Source: Bacteroidales bacterium
GTDB lineage: Bacteria; Bacteroidota; Bacteroidia; Bacteroidales; VadinHA17
Direction of reading: 5' to 3'
Length of the DNA: 64,000 bases
Assembly (NCBI GenBank): GCA_024762655.1
Contig: JANTHB010000005.1
Location: 403-64,402 of the forward strand
Shown here piece by piece: positions 3,948-56,036 of this stretch; positions within the stretch are counted from its first letter, which is position 1; each line of letters starts with the position of its first letter. Below the pieces are notes generated by a model, which was not told the DNA's origin, ran no database searches, and saw only the letters and a program-made list of their open reading frames with translations. Made by a program: the position numbers and the translations under genes.

Positions 3948-3956
3948 TTTGTTTTC

Positions 3957-20576: not shown

Positions 20577-20593
20577 ACCGTTATATTACAATT

Positions 20594-20670: not shown

Positions 20671-20672
20671 TC

Positions 20673-20739: not shown

Positions 20740-20774
20740 CCAGGTCGGCGCAAATGCCGTTCGCGTTAGCGAAT

Positions 20775-25603: not shown

Positions 25604-25652
25604 AAATAAATATTTAAATAAATAATTAAATATTTATTTAAATACATATATT
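25604..25652. repeat. AT-only palindrome between convergent genes; shares a 19-mer with the one at 45229-45263
   Basis: AAATAAATATTTAA (25604-17) pairs with TTAAATATTTATTT (25626-39). TTAAATATTTATTTAAATA (25626-44) is identical to 45241-45259. Confidence 0.7.
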
Positions 25653-37848: not shown

Positions 37849-39807
37849 ATGAAACGATTGAAAAAGATAATCCTTCTTCCCGGATTGTTCCTTCTGGTGA
37901 GCTGGCTGGCTCCAGCAAAAGAATATACCCTGCTTTCACCGGATCACCGGATCACTGTGAAAATTCAGGTGAACAACAGGGTAACCTTCGGGGTTTTCAG
38001 AAACGGGAAACAAGTGGTTTCTTCCCCCGGCATATCCATGACGGTGGACGGGGTGGTGATTCCGGTGGAACATGCCCGCGTGAAAAAAGTGTTGCATGCC
38101 CAAAGGGATGAGATCCTGCATCCGGCAGTGCCTGTGAAAAATGCGGCAATACGGAATCAATATAATGAGATCACCTTCAAATTCAGAGGGATTTACGATA
38201 TTATCTTCCGGGTATATAATGACGGGGTTGCCTACCGGTTTGCCATCCATCAACCCGGGTCGGTGGAGGTGGACGATGAGACAGCCCGCCTGGTCTTTCC
38301 CGAAGGAACATCTGCTTTTTATCCGCGCGAGGAGAGTTTTTTCTCACACAATGAACGCAGCTATATCCATTTGGATCTGAAGGATATCCAGTCCGGCGAT
38401 CTGGCCAGCCTGCCTGCCTTGTTCGAAGTGCCGGACGGGCCTGATGTCCTGCTGACAGAATCGGACCTGAACGATTACCCGGGTATGTGGATCATGGGTA
38501 CCGGGAAGAATGAGATCACGGCAACTTTTCCGAAATATCCGGAGAAAACCCAACAGACCTCTGACCGCAATGTGAAACCGGTGGAACGGGCTGATTATCT
38601 GGCTAAAACAATGGGTGAAAGGACTTTTCCCTGGAGGGTGATGATTATTGCGCCCGAAGCCAAAGATCTGCTTGAAAACGAAATGGTATATAAGCTGGCG
38701 GCCCCTCTGAAACTTAAAGATCCTTCCTGGATAAAGCCCGGCCTGGTGGCCTGGGACTGGTGGAACGCCCTGAATGTTTACGGGGTGGACTTCAAATCGG
38801 GGGTGAATACGGAAACCTATAAATATTTTATCGATTTTGCTTCGGCGAATGGCATTCCTTATATCATCTTGGATGAGGGCTGGTACAAACAGGGCAATCT
38901 TCTGGATATTAACCCGGATGTGAACATGGAAGAATTGGTGCGTTATGCCAAAGAAAAACAGGTGGGGATCATTCTGTGGGTGGTGTGGAAGACCCTGGAT
39001 GATCAGATGGAAAAGGCGCTGGATCAGTTTGAGAAATGGGGGATAAAAGGAATCAAGGTGGATTTTATGCAACGGGATGATCAGTGGATGGTGAACTTTT
39101 ATCGCAAAGTAGCGCGTGAAACGGCCAAACGTCATATGCTGGTGGATTTTCACGGGGCCTATAAACCCAGTGGCCTGCGGCGCGAATATCCCAATGTGAT
39201 CAGCCGTGAAGGGGTGAAAGGCATGGAATGGAACAAATGGAGCGAGGAAATCACCCCGGCACATAATGTGACGATCCCCTTTATCCGGATGACGGCAGGC
39301 CCCATGGATTATACCCCGGGTGCCATGGTGAATGCCCATAAAAAAAACTTCTTTGTCTCCTTTGACCGTCCCATGAGCATGACTACCCGGGTTCACCAAC
39401 TGGCTATGTATGTTGTGTATGAAAGCCCTTTGCAGATGCTGGCGGATAATCCTTCCAACTATCTGCGTGAACCGGTGTGCCTGGAGGTTCTGTCACACAT
39501 GCCTGTTACCTGGGATGAAACGCATGCCCTGGCAGGAGAAGTCGGTAAATTTGTCGTGGTGGCCCGCAGAAAAGGAGATACCTGGTATATCGGTGCGATG
39601 AACGGCGACGGCAACCGAACCGTGGAGCTCGATCTCTCTTTCCTGCCGCAAGGAACGTATCAGGCGGAGATATTCAGGGACGGAGTGAATGCAGACCGCT
39701 ATGCCCAGGATTATAAGAAAATAGTGACGACGATTCAAAGCGACCGGAAACTGGCGATTCATATGGCAGACGGTGGCGGTTGGGTAAGCATATTGAAAAA
39801 GAAGTAG
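37849..39807 (+). CDS. GH97 family glycoside hydrolase (alpha-glucosidase-like)
   Basis: A signal peptide, then ILDEGWY, KGIKVDFMQRDDQ, VDFHGAYKPSG, SREGVKGMEW and DYTPGAM, which are GH97 hallmarks. Confidence 0.85.
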   Translation: MKRLKKIILLPGLFLLVSWLAPAKEYTLLSPDHRITVKIQVNNRVTFGVFRNGKQVVSSPGISMTVDGVVIPVEHARVKKVLHAQRDEILHPAVPVKNAAIRNQYNEITFKFRGIYDIIFRVYNDGVAYRFAIHQPGSVEVDDETARLVFPEGTSAFYPREESFFSHNERSYIHLDLKDIQSGDLASLPALFEVPDGPDVLLTESDLNDYPGMWIMGTGKNEITATFPKYPEKTQQTSDRNVKPVERADYLAKTMGERTFPWRVMIIAPEAKDLLENEMVYKLAAPLKLKDPSWIKPGLVAWDWWNALNVYGVDFKSGVNTETYKYFIDFASANGIPYIILDEGWYKQGNLLDINPDVNMEELVRYAKEKQVGIILWVVWKTLDDQMEKALDQFEKWGIKGIKVDFMQRDDQWMVNFYRKVARETAKRHMLVDFHGAYKPSGLRREYPNVISREGVKGMEWNKWSEEITPAHNVTIPFIRMTAGPMDYTPGAMVNAHKKNFFVSFDRPMSMTTRVHQLAMYVVYESPLQMLADNPSNYLREPVCLEVLSHMPVTWDETHALAGEVGKFVVVARRKGDTWYIGAMNGDGNRTVELDLSFLPQGTYQAEIFRDGVNADRYAQDYKKIVTTIQSDRKLAIHMADGGGWVSILKKK

Positions 39808-39812
39808 AATAA

Positions 39813-40080
39813 CTAAAGTTTTGCACTGGATTAAAAAAATTATTTGTCTGGAATATATTATGTTAGTAGAATATAATACTTTGCGGTTCTTTGCGACATC
39901 TTTGCGAATCTTGGCGGAATAGCTGTTACGCGAAGTTACGCAGAGAAAACGCAAAGTTGCGCCAAGTTGCTGTTAATAAAAAAAGGAATCTGCAAAACAT
40001 AGATAATCAATAAAATATAAAGTTGACAAGTTGTTTAGTAAAGTCATTATTAATCAAAAAGCAGAATGTGCGAAACTTTA
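39813..40080 (+). mobile_element. 268-bp MITE-like element, copy A
   Basis: It aligns full-length (by eye ~85 percent in the flanks and 70/70 in the core at 39900-39969) with the reverse complement of 55761-56028. The 13-bp terminal inverted repeats TAAAGTTTTGCAC and GTGCGAAACTTTA match at 12/13. It starts 6 nt after the GH97 stop. Confidence 0.75.
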
Positions 40081-40099
40081 ATAAAATAAAATTTCAGGT

Positions 40100-41437
40100 A
40101 TGAAACGACATGGGTTATGGAGCGGGTTGTTACCGCTCGTGTTTCTGATCTCATGGGCGGAGGCATGGGGTCAGATCCCGGATCCCCGGGTGCGACTGGC
40201 TGAGGATTTTCTGCATCAACTGGCGACGGAGCAATATGACTCGGCGGTGCAACAGTTCGATTCCGTATTAACAGCCAGACTCCCGGCACCCACCCTCCGG
40301 GTGGTGTGGGAAGCCTTGCAGAAACAAGTGGGTTCGTTTCAGCAATATGAGAAATATTTTACCGAGACGCGTGCTCCCTGGTTCACGGTTTTTCTGACCT
40401 GTCGTTTTGAGAAGGCCCTGCTGGACATGAAGCTGGTGTACAACAAGGATCAGAAAATAGCGGGATTGTTTTTTCTTCCTGCAAGGCACCTGGCCTGGCA
40501 TACTCCTCCCTATGCGGATACGGCAAAATTTCATGTCGAACCGGTAGAAATAAGGACAGACAGTGTCGTTTTGCAGGGGGAGCTGACCACCCCGGCAGAT
40601 AAACAGATCTACCCGGTGGTGGTGCTGGTGCATGGTTCCGGGCCCAATGACCGCGATGAGACCGTCGGGCGAGACAAAGTGTTCCGGGATATTGCTTACG
40701 GGCTTTCATCCAACGGTATTGCTGTGTTGCGTTATGATAAACGTACCCTTGTTTACGGACAGAAAATGGACCCGGAACATGTGACGGTATGGGAAGAGAC
40801 CATTGAGGATGCCGTGTCTGCCGTGCGACTGGCTGAAAAAATCCCGGGGGCTTCCGCCGTCTTCCTGCTGGGACATTCACTGGGGGCTTACCTGGCGCCC
40901 CGGATCGCGGAAAAAATCCCGGACCTGACCGGGATGATCCTCCTGGCCGGAAATACACGGCCCCTGGAAGATCTTCTCCTTGAACAAACGACCTATATCC
41001 TGTCGCTGGATGGCTTGTCGGCAGAAGACAGCGCCCGGCTTCAAACATTGAAAGAAAAGATTAACAGGGTGAAAAGCAAATCGCTGAAACCGGATACCCC
41101 CCGTTCCGGACTGCCGTTACAGCTAAATGCCTCCTATTGGCTTGACCTGCGGAATTATGACCCGGTAGCTACGGCTCAGAAATTGAATAAACCCATGCTG
41201 ATCATGCAGGGTGGAAGGGATTATCAGGTGACAAAGAAAGATTTTGAGGGATGGAAAAAAGGCCTGGAAAACCGGGAAAATGTTACTTTCAGATTTTACC
41301 CCGGTCTGAATCACTTGTTTGTAACCGGTGAAGGTAAAAGTACCCCTGATGAATATATGCAGGAAGGCCATGTGTCCGGAAAAGTGATCATGGATATAAC
41401 CGGATGGATAACAAAGTACGATAATGCGATGAAGTGA
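40100..41437 (+). CDS. Secreted alpha/beta hydrolase (Ser nucleophile GHSLG)
   Basis: A signal peptide and an N-terminal ~110-aa accessory domain, then VVVLVHGSGPNDRDE, LLGHSLGA and a C-terminal GLNHLF (His). Confidence 0.7.
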   Translation: MKRHGLWSGLLPLVFLISWAEAWGQIPDPRVRLAEDFLHQLATEQYDSAVQQFDSVLTARLPAPTLRVVWEALQKQVGSFQQYEKYFTETRAPWFTVFLTCRFEKALLDMKLVYNKDQKIAGLFFLPARHLAWHTPPYADTAKFHVEPVEIRTDSVVLQGELTTPADKQIYPVVVLVHGSGPNDRDETVGRDKVFRDIAYGLSSNGIAVLRYDKRTLVYGQKMDPEHVTVWEETIEDAVSAVRLAEKIPGASAVFLLGHSLGAYLAPRIAEKIPDLTGMILLAGNTRPLEDLLLEQTTYILSLDGLSAEDSARLQTLKEKINRVKSKSLKPDTPRSGLPLQLNASYWLDLRNYDPVATAQKLNKPMLIMQGGRDYQVTKKDFEGWKKGLENRENVTFRFYPGLNHLFVTGEGKSTPDEYMQEGHVSGKVIMDITGWITKYDNAMK

Positions 41438-41572
41438 TGAAGCGATGATGCGGTTCCGAAAGACAGTACATGGAAGATTTGCAGATTCACTGTCTGAGGT
41501 GTGGTTTCAGCCTCCATCGGACATCTTGATTTTTTGTTAATAACTATCTTTTTCCGCGAGGGTTGATTTTTT

Positions 41573-41580
41573 TACCTTTG
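41573..41580 (+). promoter_or_regulatory. -7 promoter box TACCTTTG upstream of thyA
   Basis: Exact TAnnTTTG match 47 nt upstream of the ATG at 41627. Confidence 0.5.
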
Positions 41581-41626
41581 TTCCCGGATGATTTTATCCT
41601 GTAATGCAAACCTTAAGGATAAAAAG

Positions 41627-42421
41627 ATGAAGCAATACCTTGCCTTGTGTGATCATGTGCTGAAAAACGGAGTCCGGAAACAGGACCGTACCGGTACCGG
41701 GACCATCAGCGTGTTCGGGTACCAGATGCGTTTTGATCTGGCAGACGGCTTTCCCCTGCTGACCACCAAAAAACTGCATTATAAATCGATACTGTATGAA
41801 CTGCTGTGGTTCCTCCGGGGAGATACCAACATTAAATACCTGAATGAACACGGGGTGAGGATTTGGAATGAATGGGCGGATGAGAATGGTGATCTGGGAC
41901 ATATTTACGGATATCAGTGGCGGTCATGGCCTGCTGCCGGCGGGAAGCATATCGATCAGATTTCACAGGTGGTTGAATCCCTGAAAAACAACCAGGACTC
42001 GCGCAGGCATATTGTCAGCGCCTGGAATGTGAGTGAGCTGGACAACATGGCCCTGCCGCCCTGTCATATTCTTTTTCAGTTTTATGTGGCTGGCGGAAAA
42101 CTCTCCTGCCAGCTATACCAGCGTAGTGCGGATATCTTTTTAGGGGTGCCTTTCAACATTGCTTCTTATTCCCTGTTGCTCCTGATGATGGCACAGGTGA
42201 CCGGATTGAAACCGGGAGAATTTGTCCATACCCTCGGGGATGCACACATTTACCTGAATCATATAGAACAGGTGAAACTGCAGTTGACGCGCAAGCCTTA
42301 TCCGTTGCCATCCATGAAGATCAACCCGGAAAGAAAAAGCATCTTCGATTTTGAATACGAAGACTTTGTGCTGGAAAACTATACCGCCCACCCCCATATT
42401 AAAGGAGAGATATCGGTTTAG
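41627..42421 (+). CDS. thyA: Thymidylate synthase
   Basis: [51 protein letters not shown]; 264 aa from the ATG at 41627. Confidence 0.95.
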
Positions 42422-42449
42422 GAACGATGAACGACGAACGATGAACGAC
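42422..42449 (+). repeat. Perfect 14-bp tandem duplication (GAACGATGAACGAC x2) spanning the folA start
   Basis: 42422-35 equals 42436-49. The first ATG (42427) opens a 5-codon ORF, MNDER-stop. The second (42441) opens folA. Confidence 0.9.
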
Positions 42450-42950
42450 GAACCAAGGAATACCATATCCATTATTGTGGCGGTGGCTGAAAATCATGCC
42501 ATAGGAAAAGACAATAAATTGCTGTGGCATATCTCCAATGATCTTAAACGCTTTAAGAAAATCACTTCCGGTCATCCGGTGATCATGGGGAAGAAAACGT
42601 ACGAGTCGCTGCCCGTACGGCCTTTGCCCGGCAGGATGAATATCGTGCTCACCGACGTCCCGGGCGAAAAGATCGAGGGTTGCGAGATGGCTTATTCTCT
42701 TCCCGAAGCAATCGAAAAATGCCCGGAGGGGGAGGAGTGCTTTGTCATGGGGGGAGGGTCTGTGTACCGGCAGTTCCTGCCCATGGCCGATAAGCTTTAC
42801 ATTACAAAAGTTCATCAGACGTTTGAGGCGGATACCTTTTTCCCGGAGATAGATAAAAAACAATGGGAGCTGATTTCCCGAGAAGCGGTACCTGACGATG
42901 ACACGGTACCCTTCGACTATGAATACCTGGTGTACCGGAAAAGAGGCTAA
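42441..42950 (+). CDS. folA: Dihydrofolate reductase
   Basis: ISIIVAVAENHAIGKDNKLLWH...DLKRFKKITSGHPVIMGKKTYES...GGGSVY. The start is at the second copy of the duplicated ATG. Confidence 0.9.
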   Translation: MNDEPRNTISIIVAVAENHAIGKDNKLLWHISNDLKRFKKITSGHPVIMGKKTYESLPVRPLPGRMNIVLTDVPGEKIEGCEMAYSLPEAIEKCPEGEECFVMGGGSVYRQFLPMADKLYITKVHQTFEADTFFPEIDKKQWELISREAVPDDDTVPFDYEYLVYRKRG

Positions 42951-43145
42951 TCCTGTTCACGACGGGAAAACGGGATCAGGTACCGGCCGTCCCGGGAAAA
43001 ACAGTGCCGGATAATCCCCCTGAATCAGGGAAGAACTTTTATCAGGAGCCAATATTGACAATCCTAAAACCCATCCGGAAACTGGCAAAAAAAGTTGGTG
43101 AAGTACCGATATGAGTTTTTTTATACTTCTTCTCTGTAAGCCTCA

Positions 43146-43200
43146 CGCTGATTTCGCTGATCATCGCAGATATTTTCTGCGGAGATCTTCGTAATCTACG
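43146..43200. repeat. Palindromic array of six phased heptamers (CGCWGAT x3, then ATCTNCG x3)
   Basis: CGCTGAT at 43146, CGCTGAT at 43155 and CGCAGAT at 43165. The inverted TTCTGCG at 43175, ATCTTCG at 43185 and ATCTACG at 43194. Spacings are 9, 10 | 10, 9. Confidence 0.75.
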
Positions 43201-43441
43201 TGAAATTCTTGTGCACCGTTGGTGCTTTTGGGAAATATTTCCGGAATGAATGACACAATTTAGATCGGTTTATCCAATAGAAATCACCGATGAGAGGTAA
43301 AATAAATCACTTTTGCATCCTGGCTTCAACTCCAAAAGAATTTTCTTTTTTTAAACCTTTTGCAGAATATGAAATCTAACCAATGAAGTTGAGAAAACTT
43401 TTTTAGATTCGTATGAACAAACAAATTAAAACCGAAAAATT

Positions 43442-44347
43442 ATGAAAACGAGAAAATGGATTTTTATTTTATCAGCGATGGTGGCAGGAGCATTTATATT
43501 CTCTTCCTGTCAGAAAAACAGCACCGCTCCCGGTGTGATAACGCCGGATGATGAGGCTACCGTTTCGGATAATGCCTTGATGGAGAACTTGCTGGATGAC
43601 GCCATGGATGCGGCCGATCAGGCTACCCTGTTGGTGGATGCTTTTATCTTTGATAACGGGGGCAGTACGCTGAAGTCGGCTTCGGGCGTGGTGGTGTCCG
43701 ATTCGTGCCCTACCATAACGGTAGATCATCCCGACTCAACACGCTGGCCCAAAGTTATCACCATCGATTATGGGGATCTGTGTACCGGTTTTTGGGGACA
43801 TACCCGCAGCGGGAAGATTGTGATTACGATCACGGACCGTTATATGAAACCCGGCTCGGAAAGAACGGTTGAACTGGTGAACTATTATTGTAACGGGATT
43901 CATATCGAAGGAACCCGGACGGTTAAAAATGAAGGAAGAAATGAAAATAACAACCTTGTTTTCCGGGTGGAGCTGTCCGGCGGAAAGATCAGCAAGAATG
44001 ATACGGTTTTCATGACCAGGGATTTTGTAAGATACCGTGAATGGGCTGCCGGCGAAGATACCCGGAACCGTTGGGACGACGTATTCTTTATCACCGGAGA
44101 AGCCAATGGGGTTAATTTCAGAGGCCATAGTTATCACAAGGTGATCACTTCCCCGCTGGAATGGGCAAGAAGCTGCCGTTTTGTAAAGAGCGGCACGGTA
44201 TCCATCACCATTGATGACCGTCCTCCGGTGATCCTGGATTACGGCGATGGCACCTGTGACAACCTTGCCACCCTGACCCGGGGAGATAACACCAAGGAAA
44301 TAGAACTGGGATATCACCGCAAAACGTGCAGTAAATGCAGTAATTAG
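43442..44347 (+). CDS. Hypothetical lipoprotein
   Basis: Signal peptide plus lipobox (FIFSSCQKN). 301 aa, several Cys, and no family I recognise. Confidence 0.55.
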   Translation: MKTRKWIFILSAMVAGAFIFSSCQKNSTAPGVITPDDEATVSDNALMENLLDDAMDAADQATLLVDAFIFDNGGSTLKSASGVVVSDSCPTITVDHPDSTRWPKVITIDYGDLCTGFWGHTRSGKIVITITDRYMKPGSERTVELVNYYCNGIHIEGTRTVKNEGRNENNNLVFRVELSGGKISKNDTVFMTRDFVRYREWAAGEDTRNRWDDVFFITGEANGVNFRGHSYHKVITSPLEWARSCRFVKSGTVSITIDDRPPVILDYGDGTCDNLATLTRGDNTKEIELGYHRKTCSKCSN

Positions 44348-44365
44348 TACTTAACCAGGTTTGAA

Positions 44366-44399
44366 GAAACCCGCCCGGAATTCAGGGCGGGTTTTTTTA
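44366..44399. terminator. Bidirectional intrinsic terminator between the lipoprotein gene and trpA
   Basis: AAACCCGCCC (44367-76) pairs with GGGCGGGTTT (44385-94). The loop is GGAATTCA, with a T-run after and an A-run before. Confidence 0.8.
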
Positions 44400-45185
44400 T
44401 CCGGTAATATTTTCCCCTTTCATGTTGTGGATAAACTCCCGTGTTACCCGGGCAGGATCATCCTCTTTTTCGAGGGCCTTAATGTAGGCGCTGCCTGTTA
44501 TGGCTCCGTTGAGATAACGGCAGGCCTGATCAAATGTTTTCCGGTTGGATATGCCGAAGCCCGCCAGCAGTTTGTTGGAAAGGTTCATTTCCCGCAGACG
44601 CATGAAGTAGCCGGTTTGTTTTTCTGAAAAAGAATTTTTCATCCCGGTGGTGGAGCGGGAAGATACCACATACAGAAAGCCTTCCCCTTCCCGGTCGAGA
44701 AAGCGGATGCGCTCCTCCGTAGTCTGGGGCGTAATGAGAAAAATATTTTTCAGATTATGAGCCGTAAAAAGCGTTTTGTACTCTTTAATATATTCTTCCG
44801 GCGGCAGATCAGGTATGATAACCCCGTCGATCCCCTGCGTGGCAAAATCCCGGCAGAAAGCTTCCATCCCATATCTAAGTACAGGGTTCAGATAGCTCAT
44901 CAGCAAAAGGGGAGTCCCGGTGTTTTGCCGGATACCTTTGAGTTGTTCCATCAGCTTTTTAAGGGTCATGCCGTTTTTCAGGGCCACTGCGTCGCTGTGT
45001 TGTATCACCGGGCCGTCGGCCACCGGATCGGAAAAAGGCACCCCGATCTCGATCATGTCGGCTCCCTGCTCCGAAAGGGCTTTGATGACCGGTACCGTAT
45101 CGGCAAGACGGGGATAACCGGCGGTGAAATATACCGAGAGGACGCTGTGTGGTTTGTTTTTGAAAAGATAATCTATGCGGTTCAT
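44397..45185 (-). CDS. trpA: Tryptophan synthase alpha chain
   Basis: YFTAGYP, ADMIEIGVPFSDPVADGPVIQ, GFGIS. Confidence 0.9.
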   Translation of the reverse strand: MNRIDYLFKNKPHSVLSVYFTAGYPRLADTVPVIKALSEQGADMIEIGVPFSDPVADGPVIQHSDAVALKNGMTLKKLMEQLKGIRQNTGTPLLLMSYLNPVLRYGMEAFCRDFATQGIDGVIIPDLPPEEYIKEYKTLFTAHNLKNIFLITPQTTEERIRFLDREGEGFLYVVSSRSTTGMKNSFSEKQTGYFMRLREMNLSNKLLAGFGISNRKTFDQACRYLNGAITGSAYIKALEKEDDPARVTREFIHNMKGENITG

Positions 45186-45228
45186 AAGAGCGTATGTGTT
45201 TTGCGTGTGAGATTTTTTAAATATGTAT

Positions 45229-45263
45229 TTAAATAAGCATTTAAATATTTATTTAAATAAATA
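45229..45263. repeat. AT-only palindrome in the trpB-trpA spacer
   Basis: Perfect 18-bp palindrome TATTTATTTAAATAAATA (45246-63). The 19-mer at 45241-59 is identical to 25626-44, and ATATGTATTTAAATAA (45231-46) matches 25636-51 in inverse orientation. Confidence 0.7.
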
Positions 45264-45280
45264 TATCTGTTCAACGGTCG

Positions 45281-46471
45281 TCATTCATTCTTCCAATTTA
45301 GAATGGTTTCCAGGTCTTTGTCTCCTCTGCCCGACAGGTTAATGACGATATGCCGGTCGGGAGGGAAAGTCATCTTATCGAGAAGGGCGAGGGCGTGAGC
45401 TGATTCCAGGGCGGGGATGATCCCTTCGTGCCGGGCAAGAAAACGGGTGGCACGGAGTGCTTCCTCATCATTGACGGCATAAAATTCAACCCGTTTTTCC
45501 CGGAAAAGATGACTCAGCAGGGGGCCTATGCCCGGATAATCCAGTCCGGCCGAGACAGAGTAGGGCTCTGTGATCTGGCCGTCTTCATCCTGGATGACAT
45601 AAGTCTTGCTGCCGTGCAGGATGCCTGTAAGTCCCAGGGCAATGGTAGCGGCCGTCTTGCCCGTGTCCACCCCTTTTCCGCCGGCTTCCACGGCGATCAG
45701 GCGTACGGCAGGTTTGTCAAGATAGTGGTAAAAAATGCCGGCAGCGTTACTGCCTCCGCCCACGCAGGCAATAATCGTATCGGGTTCTTCGCGTCCTGTT
45801 TTTTCTTTCATTTGCCACATCAGTTCTTCACTGATGACCGACTGCAGGCGGGCCACCAGATCGGGGTAGGGATGCGGTCCCACCACCGAACCGATGAGGT
45901 AATAGGTCTCTGCAGGGTGTGAGATCCAGTCGCGCAGGGCTTCGTTTACCGCATCTTTCAGGGTGCGGTTTCCCTGTTCTACCGGGACAACTTCTGCGCC
46001 CAGCAGTTTCATCCGCTCTACGTTGGGCCGTTGCCGGACCACGTCCAGCGCTCCCATATATACGGTGCACTGCATACCCATGCGGGCACATACCGTAGCG
46101 GTGGCCACACCGTGCTGGCCGGCTCCTGTCTCGGCAATGATACGTTTTTTCCCCAGTTTACGGGCCAGCAGGATCTGACCGAGGGCGTTGTTTATTTTAT
46201 GCGCTCCGGTATGGGTCAGATCTTCTCGTTTCAGATAAATGTGCGTATGGTAGTGCTCCGAGAGCCGTGCGGCATAATACAGCGGGGTGGGACGCCCCGC
46301 ATAATCCTTCAGCAGGGAAGAAAGCTCTTTCCTGAAACCGGCGCTCTCAAGGATGGCGAGGTAGCGTTCCTGTAATTCCCGGGTATTGGGATACAGCATT
46401 TCCGGGATGTAGGCGCCTCCGAATTCTCCGTAATATCCTTCGCGGGGTGCTTTCAGCGATGTAGTGTTCAT
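45281..46471 (-). CDS. trpB: Tryptophan synthase beta chain
   Basis: [25 protein letters not shown] (PLP Lys), GGGSNAAG. Confidence 0.95.
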
Positions 46472-47103
46472 GATCTTATTTTTTTTATAAAGTGTTGAAT
46501 GCGAGGGATGTCTTTGATGCCCGGGGTGCGCTCAAAACGGCTGTTGATGTCCAGCGCATACAAACGGGGCAGCTTCAGGGACCCCGGTTCGTCAAGGATG
46601 CTTTCATTTATTCCCCCGCTCAGGAAAAACGGTACTTTAAGGTCGTATCCGGTGAGGACTTCCCTGTTGAAGGTTTTGCCGCTGCCTCCGTGCAGAGGGG
46701 TGTACGTGTCAAACAGAAAGAAATCGGCCTCTTCCGCATACGCTTCCAGAAAGCTATTGTCCGGCGGATCCTTGATCCCGAAAGCCTTAATGATTTTTAT
46801 CCCGGGGACCTCTTCCCTGATGCGCCTGCAGTATTCCGGGGTTTCATCCCCGTGCAACTGAACATAATCCAGACGGAACTTTTTGGAGAGACTTTCCACA
46901 AGACAGGGGTTTTCATCGACAAATACACCGACTTTCCGGATATTTTCCGGAATGGTTTCTGTGATATTGCGGGGCAGTTTCCCGGCATAGCGGGGGGATT
47001 CCCTGTAAAAGATAAACCCGATAAAGTCGATATCCAGGGTGGTCAGCGCCCTGATGTTGTCCGGGTCTTTCATTCCGCATACTTTGATTTTAATGTTTTT
47101 CAT
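46468..47103 (-). CDS. trpF: Phosphoribosylanthranilate isomerase
   Basis: KIKVCGM, DFIGFIF...[16 protein letters not shown]. Overlaps trpB by 4 nt. Confidence 0.9.
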
Positions 47104-47113
47104 GTTCCTGACA

Positions 47114-47902
47114 TTAGATCTTTTTTATTTTATCAATGAATTGTCTGCATGTTTTTCCGGGATCGGAGGTCTTCATGAATGTTTCGCCGATCAGGAAGCC
47201 CTGATAGCCTGCTTCTTTCAGCACAGCTACGTCTCCCGGCTCGCTGAGGCCGCTTTCCGATATTTTCACTGCATTCGGCGGGAGCAAAGGCGCTATTTCC
47301 AATGCCTGCCGGATGTCCACCGCAAAAGTGGTCAGGTTCCGGTTGTTGACGCCGATCAGATCCGCTTCTTCCGGTATTTTACGGATTTCATCCCTGTGGT
47401 GGATTTCAAAAAGGACCTCCATCTCCAGCTCTTTGGCCAGAGAGGCAAGCGCTTTGATCTGTTCAGGCTCCAGTACGGTTGCGATCAGGAGAATCGCATC
47501 GGCGCCGAGGGCACGTGCTTCGATCACCTGATACGCATCAAGGGTAAAGTCTTTGCGGAGAACAGGCAGAGAGGTGACACTTCGAACTTTTTGCAGGTCT
47601 TCATTGCTGCCCCCGAAGAACGTTTCATCGGTGAGTACCGAGAGACCTGCGGCTTCACAGCTTTCATATCCTTTTGCGATGTCTTCGGGAGAAGCCCCGG
47701 GATGAATAGTCCCTCTTGAAGGAGAGGATCTTTTGAATTCGGCGATGATCCCGGAACTGCCCGACACCGTAAGCGCTTGTGATAGCGAAATTGTCCGGCG
47801 GGAAAACCAGCGACTGTTTTCGAGAACAGAAACCGGCACCGCTGTTTTGCGGTGATCTGTTTCTTTTTGTTTGTGGGCAATGATTTTTTCCAGGATACTC
47901 AT
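47114..47902 (-). CDS. trpC: Indole-3-glycerol phosphate synthase
   Basis: IIAEFKRSSPS.G, LSVLTD..FFGGS, LRKDF, INNRNL, SESG. Confidence 0.9.
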   Translation of the reverse strand: MSILEKIIAHKQKETDHRKTAVPVSVLENSRWFSRRTISLSQALTVSGSSGIIAEFKRSSPSRGTIHPGASPEDIAKGYESCEAAGLSVLTDETFFGGSNEDLQKVRSVTSLPVLRKDFTLDAYQVIEARALGADAILLIATVLEPEQIKALASLAKELEMEVLFEIHHRDEIRKIPEEADLIGVNNRNLTTFAVDIRQALEIAPLLPPNAVKISESGLSEPGDVAVLKEAGYQGFLIGETFMKTSDPGKTCRQFIDKIKKI

Positions 47903-48894
47903 GACTGCATATTCATCAGGGTGTGAAAAACTTCTTTGGCCCTGCCTGACAGCAGAGACGCTTCAGCCATGGCCGTAGTTTCTTCCAGTGATTTTTCCGG
48001 AAAATAACACAGCAAAGCGTAAGCAGCATTGGCCACGACAACTTTGTTTTGCCCGGCAGTCCCCTGTCCTTCGAGGATATTCCCGAACAATACGGCATTC
48101 TCCCGAAGGGTTTGTCCTCCCCTGAGGGCAGCGGGAGGTACATATCCGAAAGAAAGCACACCGGGGGAAACGGTTTGCTGTGTGTCATTGGTTACCAGCC
48201 GGAAGTCGGAGGTCAGACTTACCTCGTCGTATCCATCCAGTGAATGAACGATAAAATAACGGACGGGTGTCGAAGCATATACGCCGGCATACAGATCCTG
48301 GACATCCCGGTTAAAGACGCCGATCAATTGCCGGGAGGGACGGGCAGGGTTGACCATCGGACCGAGGATATTAAAAAATGTTTTCAGCCGGAGTGTTTTT
48401 CTCACCGGGGCCACATTTTTTAAGGCCGGGTGAAACAAAGGGGCATGCAGATAGCAGATACCTGTTTGCTCCAGTTCTTTTTTCAACTTGTCATTGCTGT
48501 TGGAAAAAGAATAGCCGAAATACTGCATAATATCCGAAGAGCCGGAGGCTGAGGAGGCGGCTGCATTGCCATGTTTCACCACTTTTGCTCCGGCGCCGGC
48601 GGCGACGAAAGCCGTCAGGGTGGAAATGTTGAAGGTGTTTTTCCCGTCGCCGCCGGTACCGCAGACATCCAGGGTCTCATAACCGTTCAGATCTACCGGT
48701 ACGGCCAGTTCCAGCAAAGCTTCCCTGAAACCGGCCAGTTCGCCGGCAGTGACCGGCCGCATCATATAAGCGGTGAGAAAAGAAGATATCTCGATATCCG
48801 AATACATGCCGCTGGCAACGTTTTTCAGTACTTCCCTGGCTTCATTACGATTGAGAATTACTTTCTGAGTCAGTTTTTCCAGAATTTCTTTCAT
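47899..48894 (-). CDS. trpD: Anthranilate phosphoribosyltransferase
   Basis: DVCGTGGDGKNTFNIST, KHGN.AASS.SGS.D. The start is set at MKEILEKL (48894) rather than the listed 48972, which would overlap trpG by 26 nt. Confidence 0.85.
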   Translation of the reverse strand: MKEILEKLTQKVILNRNEAREVLKNVASGMYSDIEISSFLTAYMMRPVTAGELAGFREALLELAVPVDLNGYETLDVCGTGGDGKNTFNISTLTAFVAAGAGAKVVKHGNAAASSASGSSDIMQYFGYSFSNSNDKLKKELEQTGICYLHAPLFHPALKNVAPVRKTLRLKTFFNILGPMVNPARPSRQLIGVFNRDVQDLYAGVYASTPVRYFIVHSLDGYDEVSLTSDFRLVTNDTQQTVSPGVLSFGYVPPAALRGGQTLRENAVLFGNILEGQGTAGQNKVVVANAAYALLCYFPEKSLEETTAMAEASLLSGRAKEVFHTLMNMQS

Positions 48895-48946
48895 GAGGAT
48901 CGGTTTTTTAAGAGACAAGGCATGCCTTGTCGTTACAATTTCAATA

Positions 48947-49516
48947 TCAGTAAGTATGTAACCAGTTTTCAATCATCTGGTATCCGTATTGTGTCATGAT
49001 GGATTCGGGATGGAATTGTACCCCTCTGACATCATATGTTCTATGGGTTACTCCCATGATCTGTCCTGCTTCGTCCACACTGTTGACCACCAGGTCGCCG
49101 GGTAGCGATTCGGGGTCGATCACCCAGGAATGATACCGGCCGGCCAGAATGGTTTCAGGCAGATTGCGGAACAGAGGATCGGCGGTTACCAGGTGAATAT
49201 GGGTCTTGACACCGTGAAAGGGCTGTTCCAGGTTGATCAGGGATCCTCCGAAAATTTCGGCGATAGCCTGGTGTCCGAGACATACCCCCAGGATGCTTTT
49301 TGTTGACGCATATTCCCGGATGACTTCCAACGACCGCCCTGCCTCGGAGGGGATGCCGGGACCGGGCGAGATTACGATCTTGTCATATTCCCAGAGCTTT
49401 TCCGGAGAAAACGCATCGTTGCGAAACACATCCACCGGAGCCCCGCTGATGGTGCCGAGGTAGTTTACCAGATTATAGGTAAACGAGTCATAATTGTCGA
49501 TCACTGCAATTTTCAT
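48947..49516 (-). CDS. trpG: Anthranilate synthase component II (glutamine amidotransferase)
   Basis: MKIAVIDNYDSFTYNL, GVCLGHQ (Cys nucleophile), GVQFHPES. The listed start at 49543 adds 9 aa. Confidence 0.9.
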   Translation of the reverse strand: MKIAVIDNYDSFTYNLVNYLGTISGAPVDVFRNDAFSPEKLWEYDKIVISPGPGIPSEAGRSLEVIREYASTKSILGVCLGHQAIAEIFGGSLINLEQPFHGVKTHIHLVTADPLFRNLPETILAGRYHSWVIDPESLPGDLVVNSVDEAGQIMGVTHRTYDVRGVQFHPESIMTQYGYQMIENWLHTY

Positions 49517-49598
49517 TTTCCGGATATTGAGCATTGGCTTCATACTATGGGCAGGTTTTTACTTATTCGTCATTCATCTCTCATCGATTCTCTTTTCA

Positions 49599-51014
49599 TT
49601 AAATTTCCTGTGCCATCAGGATGGCTTTTTTCAGGGCGGCCAGCTTGTTGTTCACTTCCTGCAGTTCGTTTTCTTCCACCGATCTGGATACGATGCCTGC
49701 TCCGGCCTGGTAAAAGAGGGTATTCTTCTTGCTGAGGAATGAGCGGATCATAATGGCATGGTTGAGGTTTCCGTCCGGATGAATATATCCGATGGCGCCG
49801 CCGTAGAACCCACGTGCCTGGTTTTCAATCCGGTCTATCAGCTCCATGGCTTTGTATTTTGGAGCGCCGGTGAGGGTTCCTGCGGGAAAAGTGGCGCCCA
49901 GCATGCTGACAGAGTCTTCCGCGTGGTTGAGTCTGGCAGACACGGTAGAGACCATGTGGATAACATGGGAATAAAACTGTATCTCCTGAAACTTTTCTAC
50001 CCGGATGTCACTGCCATAGCGGCTCAGGTCGTTGCGTGCCAGGTCCACCAGCATGACATGCTCTGCATTTTCTTTTTCGTCTTTGGTCAGTTCGGAAGCC
50101 TTTTTTTTATCCTCTTCGTCATTTCCTGTTCGTTTGAAGGTTCCTGCAATAGGGTTGATGTATGCACGGCGGTTTATAATTTTCAGATGCGTCTCCGGGG
50201 ACGAACCGAAAATCCGGTAATCGCCATAATCAAAATAAAAAAGATAGGGAGAAGGGTTTATAGACCGCAGAGAGCGGTAGAGGTTGAAGTCGTCCCCCTG
50301 AAAATCCTGTTCGAACTGACGGGACAGGACGATCTGGAAGACATCGCCGCGAAAACAATGCTTTTTCCCGGTTCTGACCATCCCGAGATAGTCTTCATCG
50401 GTGATATTGGACCGTTCCTCACCGGTAACTGAAAAACGGCCGGTGGCAACGGCCATCTTCCGGATGAACATCTCTATCTTCCCGATTTCCGGCGATTCTC
50501 CGTCGAAAAGATTCTCGGTGATGAACATGGTATTGTTAAAATGGTTAATGGCGATGATATACTTGTAAAGGCTGTACCGGATATCGGGGATGGCATACGA
50601 TTCCTGTTGTTTAGCTGTCAGGGAAATGGTTTCAAAATAACGGATGGCGTCGTAGCCCAGATACCCGAAGAAACCGTTCGGGGCCTCCGGGTTTTTCTGC
50701 GTGAATGAAAAGCGGTTCATAAACTCCGTGAGAACGGGGGCAAAAGAGCCTTCCAGGGGGTATTCTTTTGTAATTTGTTCTTTGATGTTTTCTTCCACCT
50801 GGTGATCCCTGACGGAAATGGTGGCGACAGGTTGCAGGCAAATGATCGAAAGACTGTCTTCGCTGCTGTGGTAATCGGAGCTCTCCAGCAGAACGGACCG
50901 GGGGAAAATCTCCCGCATTTTCAGGTATATGGCTACCGGGGTGAAGGTGTCGGAGAGTATCTTTTGGGTTGTGGAACGGATTCTGATCTTTTTCATTTCA
51001 TCGTGTTTTATCAT
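49599..51014 (-). CDS. trpE: Anthranilate synthase component I
   Basis: LLESS, chorismate-binding C-terminus (GTLTGAPK, GGAIGY, AGAGIV.DS). Confidence 0.9.
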   Translation of the reverse strand: MIKHDEMKKIRIRSTTQKILSDTFTPVAIYLKMREIFPRSVLLESSDYHSSEDSLSIICLQPVATISVRDHQVEENIKEQITKEYPLEGSFAPVLTEFMNRFSFTQKNPEAPNGFFGYLGYDAIRYFETISLTAKQQESYAIPDIRYSLYKYIIAINHFNNTMFITENLFDGESPEIGKIEMFIRKMAVATGRFSVTGEERSNITDEDYLGMVRTGKKHCFRGDVFQIVLSRQFEQDFQGDDFNLYRSLRSINPSPYLFYFDYGDYRIFGSSPETHLKIINRRAYINPIAGTFKRTGNDEEDKKKASELTKDEKENAEHVMLVDLARNDLSRYGSDIRVEKFQEIQFYSHVIHMVSTVSARLNHAEDSVSMLGATFPAGTLTGAPKYKAMELIDRIENQARGFYGGAIGYIHPDGNLNHAIMIRSFLSKKNTLFYQAGAGIVSRSVEENELQEVNNKLAALKKAILMAQEI

Positions 51015-51047
51015 AAAAAAAGGGCTTACCGTAAACGATAAGCCCTT
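51014..51047 (-). terminator. trp attenuator terminator abutting the trpE start codon
   Basis: The minus strand reads AAGGGCTTATCG-TTTA-CGGTAAGCCCTT followed by TTTTTTT and then directly the trpE ATG (51014). Confidence 0.8.
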
Positions 51048-51068
51048 GATGAGGTTATAGCGATCGCC

Positions 51069-51125
51069 TTACGATAACATTCTGTTTTCGTTAAGCCACC
51101 ACCAACATGTATGGGTTCTGTTCAT
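51069..51125 (-). CDS. trpL: trp operon leader peptide MNRTHTCWWWLNENRMLS
   Basis: An 18-codon ORF with three consecutive TGG codons (51096-51104). It lies between a -7 box and a rho-independent terminator, directly upstream of trpE. Confidence 0.8.
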   Translation of the reverse strand: MNRTHTCWWWLNENRMLS

Positions 51126-51144
51126 TTTCTTTTCAGTTACGGAG

Positions 51145-51152
51145 CAAAAATA
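51145..51152 (-). promoter_or_regulatory. -7 promoter box TATTTTTG for the trp operon
   Basis: Exact TAnnTTTG match on the minus strand, 20 nt upstream of the leader ATG at 51125. Confidence 0.6.
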
Positions 51153-51178
51153 GAAAAAAAATATTAAAAGCAAATCAA

Positions 51179-52411
51179 TCAGGCTACTTTTAATTTTTGC
51201 AGGTTAACGCCTTCCAGTTTTTCTTTTGCGTATTTCAGGGTTATGGTCAGTTTTTTGCGTTTGCTGCCCGGGGTATGAAACATAGCGTCGGTCATGATTG
51301 TTTCGCAGATTGATCTGAGCCCGCGGGCTCCCAATTTAAACTCAACCGCTTTATCAACAATATAATCCAGCACTTCTTTCTGGAACGTCAGCTCTATGCC
51401 ATCCATTTCGAACAGTTTGGTATATTGTTTTATAATGGCATTTTTAGGTTCGGTAAGGATCCGGCGCAGGGCGGTTCTGTCGAGAGGGTGCAGATAGGTA
51501 AGCACCGGGAGCCGTCCGATAATCTCAGGGATCAGTCCGTATGATTTCAGGTCCTGGGGAGCGATATATTGCAGCAGGTTGTTTTTGTCGATCTTATCCC
51601 GGTTTTTGGAAGCGCCGAAGCCTACAACCTGGGTGTTCAGGCGGTTGGCGATTTTCTTTTCAATACCGTCAAATGCTCCGCCACAGATAAAAAGAATATT
51701 TTTTGTATCTACGGGGATCATTTTTTGTTCGGGATGCTTTCTCCCACCCTGCGGAGGCACGTTTACAATGGATCCTTCCAGCAGTTTCAGCAGTCCCTGC
51801 TGGACTCCTTCGCCCGAAACGTCACGTGTTATGGAGGGATTGTCTCCCTTACGGGCGATCTTATCTATCTCGTCGACAAAAACAATTCCTTTTTCTGCCG
51901 CTGCCACATCGTAGTCGGCTGCCTGCAACAGGCGTGTCAGGAGGCTTTCAATATCTTCCCCCACATAACCTGCTTCCGTCAGGACGGTAGCATCCACAAT
52001 GGTGAAAGGAACATGGAGCATTTTGGCAATGGTACGCGCCAGCAGGGTTTTGCCCGTGCCTGTTTCCCCAACCATAATGATGTTTGATTTCTCTATCTCC
52101 ACATCATCTTGTGTGGAAGGTTGCATAAGCCGTTTGTAATGATTGTAAACGGCTACGGAGATATATTTTTTGGCCTCTTCCTGGCCGATGACATACTGAT
52201 CAAGAAATTTCTTGATCTCGGTGGGTTTCATCAACTGGATATCGTTCACGTTGAGGCTGCTCTTGCCCTTCAGCTCTTCCTTCATGATCCCGTAGGCCTG
52301 CTCTATACAATGATCGCAGATATATCCGCTGATGCCCGAGATGAGCAGGTTGGTATCCTTTTTTTCACGTCCGCAAAACGAACAACGTTCCATATGTTCG
52401 GTATTTTTCAT
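51179..52411 (-). CDS. clpX: ATP-dependent Clp protease ATP-binding subunit ClpX
   Basis: CSFCG...C..C zinc ribbon, GETGTGKT Walker A, IVFVDEIDK Walker B. The listed start at 52438 runs through a terminator T-run. The true start is the ATG at 52411 or 52393. Confidence 0.9.
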   Translation of the reverse strand: MKNTEHMERCSFCGREKKDTNLLISGISGYICDHCIEQAYGIMKEELKGKSSLNVNDIQLMKPTEIKKFLDQYVIGQEEAKKYISVAVYNHYKRLMQPSTQDDVEIEKSNIIMVGETGTGKTLLARTIAKMLHVPFTIVDATVLTEAGYVGEDIESLLTRLLQAADYDVAAAEKGIVFVDEIDKIARKGDNPSITRDVSGEGVQQGLLKLLEGSIVNVPPQGGRKHPEQKMIPVDTKNILFICGGAFDGIEKKIANRLNTQVVGFGASKNRDKIDKNNLLQYIAPQDLKSYGLIPEIIGRLPVLTYLHPLDRTALRRILTEPKNAIIKQYTKLFEMDGIELTFQKEVLDYIVDKAVEFKLGARGLRSICETIMTDAMFHTPGSKRKKLTITLKYAKEKLEGVNLQKLKVA

Positions 52412-52416
52412 CACTG

Positions 52417-52424
52417 CAAAGTTA
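52417..52424 (-). promoter_or_regulatory. -7 promoter box TAACTTTG immediately upstream of clpX
   Basis: Exact TAnnTTTG match on the minus strand, only 6 nt before the ATG at 52411 and 24 nt before the ATG at 52393. Confidence 0.45.
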
Positions 52425-52427
52425 ACG

Positions 52428-52461
52428 AAAAAAAACAAAAGGGGCTTTTTATGCCCCCTTT
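52428..52461 (-). terminator. Intrinsic terminator between clpP and clpX
   Basis: The minus strand reads GAAAGGGGGCATAAAAAGCCCCTTTT followed by GTTTTTTTT. The stem is GGGGC/GCCCC plus flanking A-T pairs. Confidence 0.65.
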
Positions 52462-52485
52462 CAGTTTTTTCAGGGATTACAATCT

Positions 52486-53172
52486 TTATTTTTTGGGTGT
52501 GTGATTTCTTTCCAGGATTTCATCGATCATCCCGTAGGCTTTGGCTTCTTCTGCCGTCATCCAGAAATCACGGTCCGAGTCTTTGGAAACTTTCTTTAGC
52601 GGGTTTCCGGAGTGTTCAGCGACAATGGAGTAAAGTTCGTGTCTGAGTTTGACAATTTCACGGGTCGTGATCTCAATATCGGAAGCGGGTCCCTGTACGC
52701 CGCCCATGGGCTGGTGAATCATCACCCTGGAGTGCTTGAGGGCCGATCTTTTTCCTTTGGTTCCGGCACAGAGCAGGACGGCTCCCATCGAAGCGGCAAT
52801 GCCTGTGCAGATGGTGGCGACATCACAGCCAATGTATTGCATGGTGTCATAGATCCCAAGTCCGGCATATACGGAACCTCCCGGGGTGTTGAGGTAGATC
52901 TGGATGTCTTTGCCCGGTTCGGAAGATTCAAGATACAACAGCTGGGCTTCTACAATGTTGGCGACATAGTCGTCAATCGCCAGACCGATAAAAATGATGC
53001 GGTCCATCATCAGCCGCGAAAAAACATCCATCGAGGCAACATTCAACTGCCGTTCTTCAATGATCGTAGGTGAGATGTAGTTGTTATAAACCGACATATA
53101 CTGGTCCAGCCCCAGCGGGTTTATTCCGATATGCTTTGTGGCAAATTTTTTAAAATCGTCCTGTGTTTTCAT
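52486..53172 (-). CDS. clpP: ATP-dependent Clp protease proteolytic subunit
   Basis: RIIFIGLAIDD, TICTGIAASMGAVLL (Ser), MIHQP (His). Confidence 0.95.
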   Translation of the reverse strand: MKTQDDFKKFATKHIGINPLGLDQYMSVYNNYISPTIIEERQLNVASMDVFSRLMMDRIIFIGLAIDDYVANIVEAQLLYLESSEPGKDIQIYLNTPGGSVYAGLGIYDTMQYIGCDVATICTGIAASMGAVLLCAGTKGKRSALKHSRVMIHQPMGGVQGPASDIEITTREIVKLRHELYSIVAEHSGNPLKKVSKDSDRDFWMTAEEAKAYGMIDEILERNHTPKK

Positions 53173-53209
53173 GATATAAATATTTTAATTTAGGACCTAA
53201 AAGTACTAA

Positions 53210-54592: not shown

Positions 54593-54612
54593 CTTATAAT
54601 CGTTAAATTGTT

Positions 54613-54634
54613 AAAAAAACCGCTTTTAAGCGGC
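54613..54634 (-). terminator. Intrinsic terminator after tRNA-Leu
   Basis: The minus strand reads CAGCCGCTTAAAAGCGG followed by TTTTTTT. It ends 20 nt before the tig ATG. Confidence 0.55.
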
Positions 54635-54647
54635 TGTATTGTTTTTG

Positions 54648-54729
54648 TGCGGATGAAGGGACTCGAACCCCCACGCCCGAAGGCACCAGATCCTAAGTCT
54701 GACGCGTCTACCAATTCCGCCACATCCGC
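54648..54729 (-). tRNA. tRNA-Leu (anticodon UAG)
   Basis: The minus strand reads GCGGATGTGGCGGAATTGGTAGACGCGTCAGACTTAGGATCTGGTGCCTTCGGGCGTGGGGGTTCGAGTCCCTTCATCCGCA. It has a 7-bp acceptor stem, anticodon loop CTTAGGA, a long variable arm and a GGTTCGAGTCC T-loop. CCA is not encoded. Confidence 0.9.
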
Positions 54730-54740
54730 AAAATTTTCCG

Positions 54741-54748
54741 CAAAGATA
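54741..54748 (-). promoter_or_regulatory. -7 promoter box TATCTTTG for tRNA-Leu
   Basis: Exact TAnnTTTG match on the minus strand, 12 nt upstream of the tRNA 5' end. Confidence 0.55.
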
Positions 54749-54862
54749 GGAATTTTTTCCCACCTGAAAATTAAAAGAAAAATATACCCGGGTTATTCGT
54801 ATAATAATCTCCGAACAACTATTTTTTTTAACTTTAGCAGGTAAACGAAAAAACCAGGAAAG

Positions 54863-55756: not shown

Positions 55757-55760
55757 TGAT
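55753..55760. repeat. Target-site duplication TTAATGAT, left copy (contains the stop codon of the upstream gene)
   Basis: Identical to 56029-56036 on the other side of MITE copy B. Confidence 0.75.
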
Positions 55761-56028
55761 TAAAGTTTCGCACATTCTGCTATTTGATTAAGAGTGATTT
55801 TATCAAACAAAGTGCCAATTTAATATTTCATTGATTATCTTTGTTTTGCAGATTCCTTTTGTTATTAACACCAACTTGGCGCAACTTTGCGTTTTCTCTG
55901 CGTAACTTCGCGTAACAGCTATTCCGCCAAGATTCGCAAAGAAGTCGCGAAGAACCGCAAAGCTTTATATTGTACTAACATAATATATTCCAAACAAATA
56001 AATTTTTTAATCCAGTACGAAGCTTTAG
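55761..56028 (-). mobile_element. 268-bp MITE-like element, copy B (inverted relative to copy A)
   Basis: The reverse complement aligns end-to-end with 39813-40080, with an identical 70-nt core at 55872-55941. The ends are TAAAGTTTCGCAC and GTACGAAGCTTTAG, and the element is flanked by a perfect 8-bp direct repeat. Confidence 0.8.
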
Positions 56029-56036
56029 TTAATGAT
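56029..56036. repeat. Target-site duplication TTAATGAT, right copy
   Basis: Identical to 55753-55760. Confidence 0.75.

Follow-up and report, generated by a model that had tools for sequence, protein, structure and literature searches.

The window analysed here, a stretch of 64,000 nucleotides from a Bacteroidales bacterium, carries in two of its intergenic regions a palindrome built of short, helically spaced heptamers, and the locus raises the question of what this palindrome belongs to and whether it is read as duplex DNA, as a folded single strand or not at all. The first-pass annotation had described it as eight phased CTTNGCG heptamers arranged as a palindrome, and both direct reading of the sequence and pattern searches bear this out, including the 10/11/10 spacing. 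In copy A, four CTTNGCG units, a 12-nt centre and four CGCNAAG units occupy positions 39879-39966 of the plus strand. The features of the two cores are the following:

39879-39916, plus strand: left arm of four CTTNGCG heptamers, starting at 39879, 39889, 39900 and 39910 (sequence reading, pattern search)
39917-39928, plus strand: centre GAATAGCTGTTA, 12 nt, near-palindromic AYAGCTRT, with a mean of 1.15 bits in the alignment of module copies (A4, see below)
39929-39966, plus strand: right arm CGCGAAG, CGCAGAG, CGCAAAG, CGCCAAG, starting at 39929, 39939, 39950 and 39960
55875-55962, minus strand: heptamer core of copy B (sequence reading, pattern search, spacing analysis)
39899-39969, plus strand: 71-nt block identical between copies A and B, lying at 55872-55942 in copy B

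Left of the centre the array reads CTTTGCG-GTT-CTTTGCG-ACAT-CTTTGCG-AAT-CTTGGCG, and right of it CGCGAAG-TTA-CGCAGAG-AAAA-CGCAAAG-TTG-CGCCAAG, which gives start-to-start distances of 10, 11 and 10 on the left arm, 19 across the centre and again 10, 11 and 10 on the right arm. Exact CTTNGCG or its complement is found in seven of the eight units of copy A, those on the minus strand lying at 39929-39935, 39950-39956 and 39960-39966, while the eighth unit, CGCAGAG at 39939-39945, indeed departs from CGCNAAG by one base, as had been pointed out earlier. The heptamer as such is not enriched in the window (29 matches versus 25.3 expected), and 14 of these 29 matches fall within the two 88-nt cores. 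The heptamers of copies A and B differ only once, by a T/C change at 39892 that affects an N position and, in agreement with the earlier reading, is uncompensated. The identity of 70 of 70 nucleotides previously reported between the copies also holds, the identical stretch actually being 71 nt long (39899-39969); by our own arithmetic, a run of this length at 9% divergence has a chance probability of about 0.02-0.03. With two or three near-identical copies, selection and gene conversion are inseparable as causes of the identity of the A and B cores.

Each core is embedded in one of two copies of a 268-bp non-coding element, hereafter the long form, whose parts and immediate surroundings are listed here:

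39813-40080, plus strand: copy A of the 268-bp element, an inverted repeat of copy B
55761-56028, minus strand: copy B of the 268-bp element, an inverted repeat of copy A
39813-39826, plus strand: left terminal inverted repeat CTAAAGTTTTGCAC; 12 of 13 bases can pair with 40068-40080
40068-40080, plus strand: right terminal inverted repeat GTGCGAAACTTTA, pairing with the left end
39804-39812: left target duplication of copy A, GTAGAATAA, agreeing with the right one at 7 of 9 positions and containing the GH97 stop codon (39805-39807)
40081-40089: right target duplication of copy A, ATAAAATAA, the same as the single 9-mer at the empty site of L019 and L020
55753-55760: target duplication of copy B, TTAATGAT (given for the plus strand), agreeing with 56029-56036 at 8 of 8 positions and containing a stop codon (55754-55756)
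56029-56036: second target duplication of copy B, TTAATGAT, an 8 of 8 match

Copies A and B are 90.7% identical over 268 nt (25 mismatches), copy B lying within a 288-nt inverted repeat of copy A, and their similarity starts and stops abruptly at both sides. The boundaries of copy A were fixed by the empty sites of three loci in relatives (L019, L022 and L025), and the insertion boundaries coincide with the terminal repeats CTAAAGTTTYGCAC and GTGCGAAACTTTA, which match in 12-13 of their 13 bases. The element ends are CTAAAGTTTCGCAC, flanked by 8-9-bp duplications, and the terminal inverted repeats are common to four copies, namely A, B and two full-length copies from other genomes (L008 and L006). 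All six reading frames of the element are interrupted; the only long ORF is antisense and runs into the neighbouring gene, and a protein search with this antisense ORF across the element returned zero candidates. Beyond the elements themselves, the terminal repeats had no match in ~360 kb of sequence, in which no parent insertion sequence with the same ends was found. Short-read contigs from the sample carrying this genome break inside the identical core. The earlier description of an element was right about the core array but missed its MITE-like insertion context, i.e., the ends, the duplications and the empty sites, as well as the occurrence of the array by itself, as an older module, in distant Bacteroidota.

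The right terminal repeat (40068-40077) contains TGCGAAACTT, a 9 of 10 match to the heptamer junction TGCGAATCTT at 39902-39911, and a segment of the L004 core matches the terminal repeat with two mismatches. In shuffling tests this likeness falls short of significance (p about 0.2); it would be understandable were the ends and the core recognised by a single protein. The idea that the element flanks are themselves decayed arrays was rejected, local alignments of flank against core giving p values of 0.16-0.56.

The insertion history of the two sites can be read from relatives, i.e., the orthologous regions of the nearest matches in a protein collection, at 79-86% protein identity. The genes on either side of copy A encode a GH97 glycosidase and a DUF3887 hydrolase. 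In three relatives (L019-L025; hydrolase identity 86, 81 and 79%) the gene order GH97-hydrolase-thyA-folA is preserved throughout, and the gap between the GH97 and hydrolase genes measures 13, 15 and 33 nt as against 292 nt in the window. The empty site of L019 reads GAAAGAA-ATAAAATAA-AATTAGTCATG, and the window reads AAAAGAA-GTAGAATAA-(element, 39813-40080)-ATAAAATAA-AATTTCAGGTATG. As L019 has a single 9-mer where the window has two, the 9-mer at site A, including the GH97 stop codon, is duplicated. The two mismatches of GTAGAATAA fall on synonymous or stop-codon positions, which are variable among the relatives too, and the sequence to the right of ATAAAATAA (AATT...) is collinear with L019. 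Copy B separates the convergent ends of a gene for a ~297-aa beta-propeller-like protein (ORF 54863-55756) and a DUF4870 gene, and the site B relative (80% identity, in four contigs, L026-L029) has a 23-nt intergenic spacer there as against 303 nt in the window. At both sites, deletion of the element and one duplication restores collinearity with the empty sites, and no copy of the element was found in ~200 kb of Bacteroidales sequence from the relatives. Given that syntenic relatives lack it at both sites, the 268-bp element is a MITE-like insertion that arose by two independent intergenic events in this genome. Indeed, the long form has the properties of a MITE in each respect assessed, that is, in size, non-coding nature, terminal repeats, target duplication and presence or absence among relatives.

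In all three insertions that could be assessed (39804-39812, 55753-55760 and 7660-7667 of L006), the stop codon of a flanking gene lies inside one target duplication. AT-rich 8-9-mers at the very ends of genes seem to be the targets of the element, and the genes are left undisrupted. Copies A and B form inverted repeats that bracket 15.7 kb (40081-55760) containing thyA, folA, the trp operon, clpX, clpP, tig and a tRNA-Leu gene; a composite transposon or an inversion of this interval was considered and rejected, as the relatives share both gene order and orientation.

The window also contains other repeats. Two arrays of an unrelated 11-nt unit, ATTGTATGACC / ATGACTACCGT, with 3.1 and 5.5 copies, lie in the region 20548-20900 (at 20591-20624 and 20777-20836). 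One block of ~36 nt, CACTTAATTTCGYTGCGAGCTTGCGAGCAGCTAATT, recurs behind each of them, and they represent another helically phased, intergenic repeat. Additionally, AT-rich arrays with a 12-nt period, AAATAAATATTT, of about 3.8 copies each, are found at 25604-25649 and 45216-45259, in inverted orientation and 19.6 kb apart.

Two further full-length copies of the long form were recovered, one from a Lentimicrobiaceae MAG (L006; 77% identical, with a 7 of 8 target duplication overlapping a stop codon) and one at a contig end of a Bacteroidales MAG (L008; 88-90% identical). The earlier proposal that the core is better conserved than the flanks is borne out in every pair among the four full-length copies, with 86-100% identity in the core versus 70-91% in the flanks. 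Copy A and L006 differ at 12 sites in the core, and all but one of these are N, spacer or centre positions. This sets the long form apart from the bacterial MITEs that it otherwise resembles, such as the Correia/NEMIS elements of Neisseria, the pneumococcal RUP and the MITEs of Porphyromonas gingivalis. With these it shares small size (here 268 bp), a non-coding and intergenic nature, terminal repeats, target duplication, multiple copies, presence or absence at orthologous sites and insertion beside gene ends. However, its best-conserved part is the internal phased heptamer array rather than the termini, and members of other classes of the phylum carry this internal module free of MITE ends.

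The latter point emerges from a scan of one genome per species (596 Gb) with the pattern CTTNGCG-N3-CTTNGCG-N12-CGCNAAG-N3-CGC, in which 21 bases are specified. It yielded eight loci versus about 0.3 expected by chance according to our own arithmetic, and seven of them belong to Bacteroidota: Flavobacterium reichenbachii, two Flavobacteriaceae MAGs, a Lentimicrobiaceae MAG, two Bacteroidales MAGs and a 'Bacteroidetes' MAG. The outer heptamers, which are absent from the search pattern, are present in all seven. The eighth locus, from Polaromonas, lies in GC-rich coding sequence and was dismissed as a chance match. In five of the seven loci the module, of ~95 nt, stands alone and occupies most of an intergenic gap of 126-153 nt, and a profile search of the retrieved loci disclosed second copies in L004 and L009 and three tandem modules in L007. 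A metagenome scan anchored on the centre yielded a single copy (L018), given which the module family may be rare. Searches of plasmid and phage collections (blastn in distant mode) gave no match, and the matches of an 18-base pattern in viral contigs were rejected as chance hits in GC-rich coding sequence.

The neighbours of the modules are mutually unrelated, comprising an efflux pump operon and genes for a subtilase, purT, an aminotransferase and a cytochrome c assembly protein. The module of L010 lies between divergent genes; several stand-alone modules lie 10-35 nt from same-strand genes, one of them in L004 between acrB-like and outer-membrane efflux genes, and such operon-internal modules are almost certainly transcribed. 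No target duplications were found around the stand-alone modules, which may simply be old; they may be immobile or rely on another way of moving. In short, the module of four units, centre and four units is older than the MITE and also occurs alone in intergenic gaps of Flavobacteriia and Bacteroidia.

Some of these loci show additional arrangements. In L007, from a Flavobacteriaceae MAG, three head-to-tail modules of ~90 nt (3721-4000) lie directly downstream of two tRNA genes (4123-4297, minus strand), a run from which it follows that the module can amplify in tandem. In L004, diverged modules at 2008-2108 and 6720-6818 bracket the gene of a 1280-aa AcrB-type transporter, and in L009 diverged modules at 2121-2217 and 6452-6554 bracket that of a 1404-aa subtilase. 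Given a high copy density, this bracketing of large genes in unrelated genomes may be due to chance.

To resolve which parts of the module are conserved, 14 copies from about eight lineages were oriented by their centre in one alignment (A4). In this small sample, in which the search patterns and the HMM had in part preselected for the inner heptamers, the mean information content over all seven heptamer columns is 1.57 bits, as compared with 0.66 bits for the spacers and 1.15 bits for the centre. Within the heptamer the values are 1.78 (C), 1.86 (T), 1.51 (T), 0.93 (N), 1.86 (G), 1.44 (C) and 1.61 (G). The centre GAATAGCTGTTA is kept among the Bacteroidia copies and sets the polarity of the module. 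Further, the phasing first noticed in copies A and B is retained elsewhere: the distance within each pair of heptamers (H1-H2, H3-H4, H5-H6, H7-H8) is 10 in 13-14 of the 14 copies, and the H4-H5 distance is 19 in 13 of them. The linkers between pairs, in contrast, vary in length and do so asymmetrically between the arms (8-12 for H2-H3, 10-13 for H6-H7). The combination of near-fixed 10-bp pairs with variable linkers indicates that the actual unit is a 17-bp double heptamer, which occurs four times with two-fold symmetry. Copies from the same genome that have diverged by ~25% (L009a/b and L004a/b) nevertheless retain the fixed heptamer positions and the 10-bp spacing. As judged from these sequence comparisons, the central module is under constraint on both the heptamers and their phasing.

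This bears on the view that the array has no present function, being a frozen relic of a 10-11-nt unit that was first duplicated in tandem and then in inverted form, with the likeness of the copies maintained by recent amplification of a master copy and by gene conversion. In its favour are the 71-nt identity of copies A and B, 16 kb apart, which is what gene conversion would be expected to produce, the tandem amplification of the module seen in L007, and a patchy distribution, as exemplified by the lack of a copy in about 200 kb of related Bacteroidales. Yet ~25%-diverged copies within a genome keep the heptamer positions and the exact 10-bp spacing, and the same architecture is seen in Flavobacteriia and Bacteroidia, with substitutions avoiding the fixed positions. 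We consider this explanation improbable.

A more substantial alternative stems from the symmetry of the module, on account of which its arms can fold as had been noted earlier. A four-helix hairpin is predicted on both strands, with -38 kcal/mol (z -3.7) for the RNA of one strand, -29.7 (z -3.2) for that of the opposite strand and -22 (z -3.9) with DNA parameters. Hence, the module could act as a single-stranded hairpin, either transcribed, like REP and ERIC sequences, or as ssDNA read by an HUH (Y1, RAYT-like) transposase. In mRNA it would stabilise the transcript, serve as a site for RNase III or act in polarity; as ssDNA it would permit a transposase to spread stand-alone copies without target duplication. 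Besides the strength of the predicted folds, the almost certain transcription of several stand-alone copies points in this direction, as does the fact that either orientation yields the same RNA, 5'-CUUNGCG x4 ... CGCNAAG x4-3'. The stand-alone copies are without visible target duplication, and the Bacteroidetes possess a RAYT subclass with atypical hairpins (PMC6006769). However, the published repeats of this subclass (2.6; PMC6006769, Table S1) are different sequences without the heptamer array.

The alignment also speaks against a selected helix. In A4, 86.5% of the hairpin cells are standard pairs, as opposed to 87.3% when the partners are shuffled among sequences, and the number of compensatory cells is three where 3.0 are expected, with a covariation score below the shuffle mean; compensatory changes of the kind that would betray an RNA hairpin are thus not in excess. 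At the central helix position about half of the cells deviate from standard pairing, and the lengths of the internal loops vary asymmetrically. Cells of the G.U type (21) and of the A.C type (19) are equally frequent, so that neither strand is favoured, unlike in RNA. Neither a GTAG foot nor a U-run is present, and Rfam searches of the window, the element and eight related loci, at gathering as well as permissive thresholds, returned only tRNAs and chance microRNA-like hairpins. The presence of one motif in both arms fully accounts for the hairpin potential. At the same time, arms that share one consensus rarely show covariation, and with few sequences and a single consensus a hairpin read sequence-specifically, as REPs are by their transposase, would look alike, which makes the covariation result weak evidence against this particular version. 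On balance we regard the single-stranded hairpin as rather unlikely. The comparison of the sequences favours a sequence-specific array in duplex DNA over a selected RNA helix. The earlier preference for an array bound by protein on one face thus stands with respect to the motif array, as supported by conservation and the lack of covariation, and remains a proposal with respect to protein binding.

Several other RNA- or transcription-related candidates were considered for the element. A structured RNA comprising the whole element and closed by the terminal repeats was rejected, as it is without covariation support, the covariation term for the full 268 nt being +1.81 (positive values are unfavourable). 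An intrinsic terminator was likewise discounted, as none is predicted in the element and the hairpin has no U-run following it. The reverse of CGCAAAG-TTA-CGC, TAACTTTG, resembles the Bacteroidetes -7 box; it was rejected as a promoter on spacing, the distance from TAACTTTG to the next upstream TTTG being outside the 19-21-nt range by hand count, and neither copy A nor copy B contains a match to TTTG-N17-23-TAnnTTTG.

The duplex array might be thought of as a classical operator or enhancer for neighbouring genes, occupied for example by a response regulator on phased direct repeats. Four direct repeats at 10-11-bp spacing do resemble boxes of the OmpR/PhoB type, and the L010 copy is placed between divergent genes, as an operator might be. 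But the neighbours at every locus are unrelated housekeeping genes (GH97, hydrolase, efflux pump, subtilase, purT, aminotransferase, cytochrome c assembly), the copies in the window were inserted downstream of stop codons, in one case between convergent genes, and no promoter of the Bacteroidetes type (TTTG ... TAnnTTTG) occurs in the element. This makes local regulation a very improbable role.

Taken as a whole, the explanation that we prefer, at somewhat better than even confidence, is that the 88-nt palindrome is the constrained centre of a MITE and probably a docking platform for a putative DNA-binding protein. The MITE duplicates 8-9 bp of AT-rich target including the stop codon of a gene. 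Its module would comprise four double sites of 17 bp each (CTTNGCG-NNN-CTTNGCG), arranged in two pairs that flank a dyad axis running through the AGCT of the centre, and the phasing would bring them all to the same side of the double helix. A protein acting in trans, as a dimer or a larger oligomer, could then read the heptamers in the duplex and load cooperatively on both arms, and such binding would keep the module conserved, with the hairpin potential as a by-product of two-fold symmetry. Candidate readers include the mobilising transposase or recombinase, an accessory factor and a nucleoid protein of the host. Transposase sites normally lie at element ends, and the position of the array in the middle of the MITE rather than at its ends is a point against this explanation. 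A broader reading, which we put forward tentatively and think doubtful, is that the CTTNGCG array is the cis element of a phylum-wide Bacteroidota system comparable to REP/BIME-RAYT, with a dedicated, conserved DNA-binding protein. This protein, perhaps a nucleoid protein or else a transposase or recombinase that has been domesticated, would read the double heptamers on one helix face.

Comparison with known systems helps to place the docking platform. BIMEs are known protein-binding platforms (for IHF and gyrase). With REP, BIME and REPIN sequences the module shares the nature of a dispersed, intergenic, imperfect palindrome of ~100 nt that is multicopy and often operon-internal, and its stand-alone copies show no target duplication, although they may simply be old. 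In contrast to REPs and REPINs, it has no GTAG or CGTC foot, its arms begin with CTTNGCG, and these arms are arrays of 7-mers at helical spacing rather than a continuous stem; further, Y1 transposition makes no target duplication, whereas the long form makes duplications of 8-9 bp. Iterons, parC of R1 as bound by ParR, the heptad arrays of the omega protein and the OmpR/PhoB boxes also present short motifs at about one helical turn, in direct and inverted blocks, a likeness that implies cooperative one-face binding by an oligomeric protein. Unlike these arrays, the present one is chromosomal, dispersed and on a mobile element, and does not lie beside rep, par or a regulated gene. An origin as a plasmid or phage iteron or as a partition site was rejected in view of the housekeeping neighbours and the lack of any plasmid, phage or viral-contig match. 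Tn3-derived TIMEs with an internal res site are likewise miniature elements with an internal multi-site protein-binding module, which here is putative; they differ in having 38-bp ends and 5-bp duplications, as against ends of 13-14 bp and duplications of 8-9 bp.

Within the literature searchable, a search for the motif and for REP or MITE elements of Bacteroidetes turned up no relevant work. In Proteobacteria, REP, BIME, ERIC and Correia elements influence how stable mRNAs are, how DNA is supercoiled and how genomes rearrange, and, to our knowledge, no comparable dispersed repeats are well described for Bacteroidota. What is new, then, is that the conserved part of a MITE is an internal phased array which also forms an independent dispersed repeat across Bacteroidota. 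In this genome, each insertion places a strong palindrome into gene junctions that are tight in relatives, and the two inverted copies, 15.7 kb apart, are a substrate for inversion. Beyond it, an explicit architecture, consisting of a 7-mer, four double sites at 10 bp and two-fold symmetry, has been kept from Flavobacterium to Bacteroidales, and the module offers a concrete 88-bp bait for finding its reader protein. If the phylum-wide reading is true, the module would persist over class-level divergence, both standing alone and as the cargo of a MITE.
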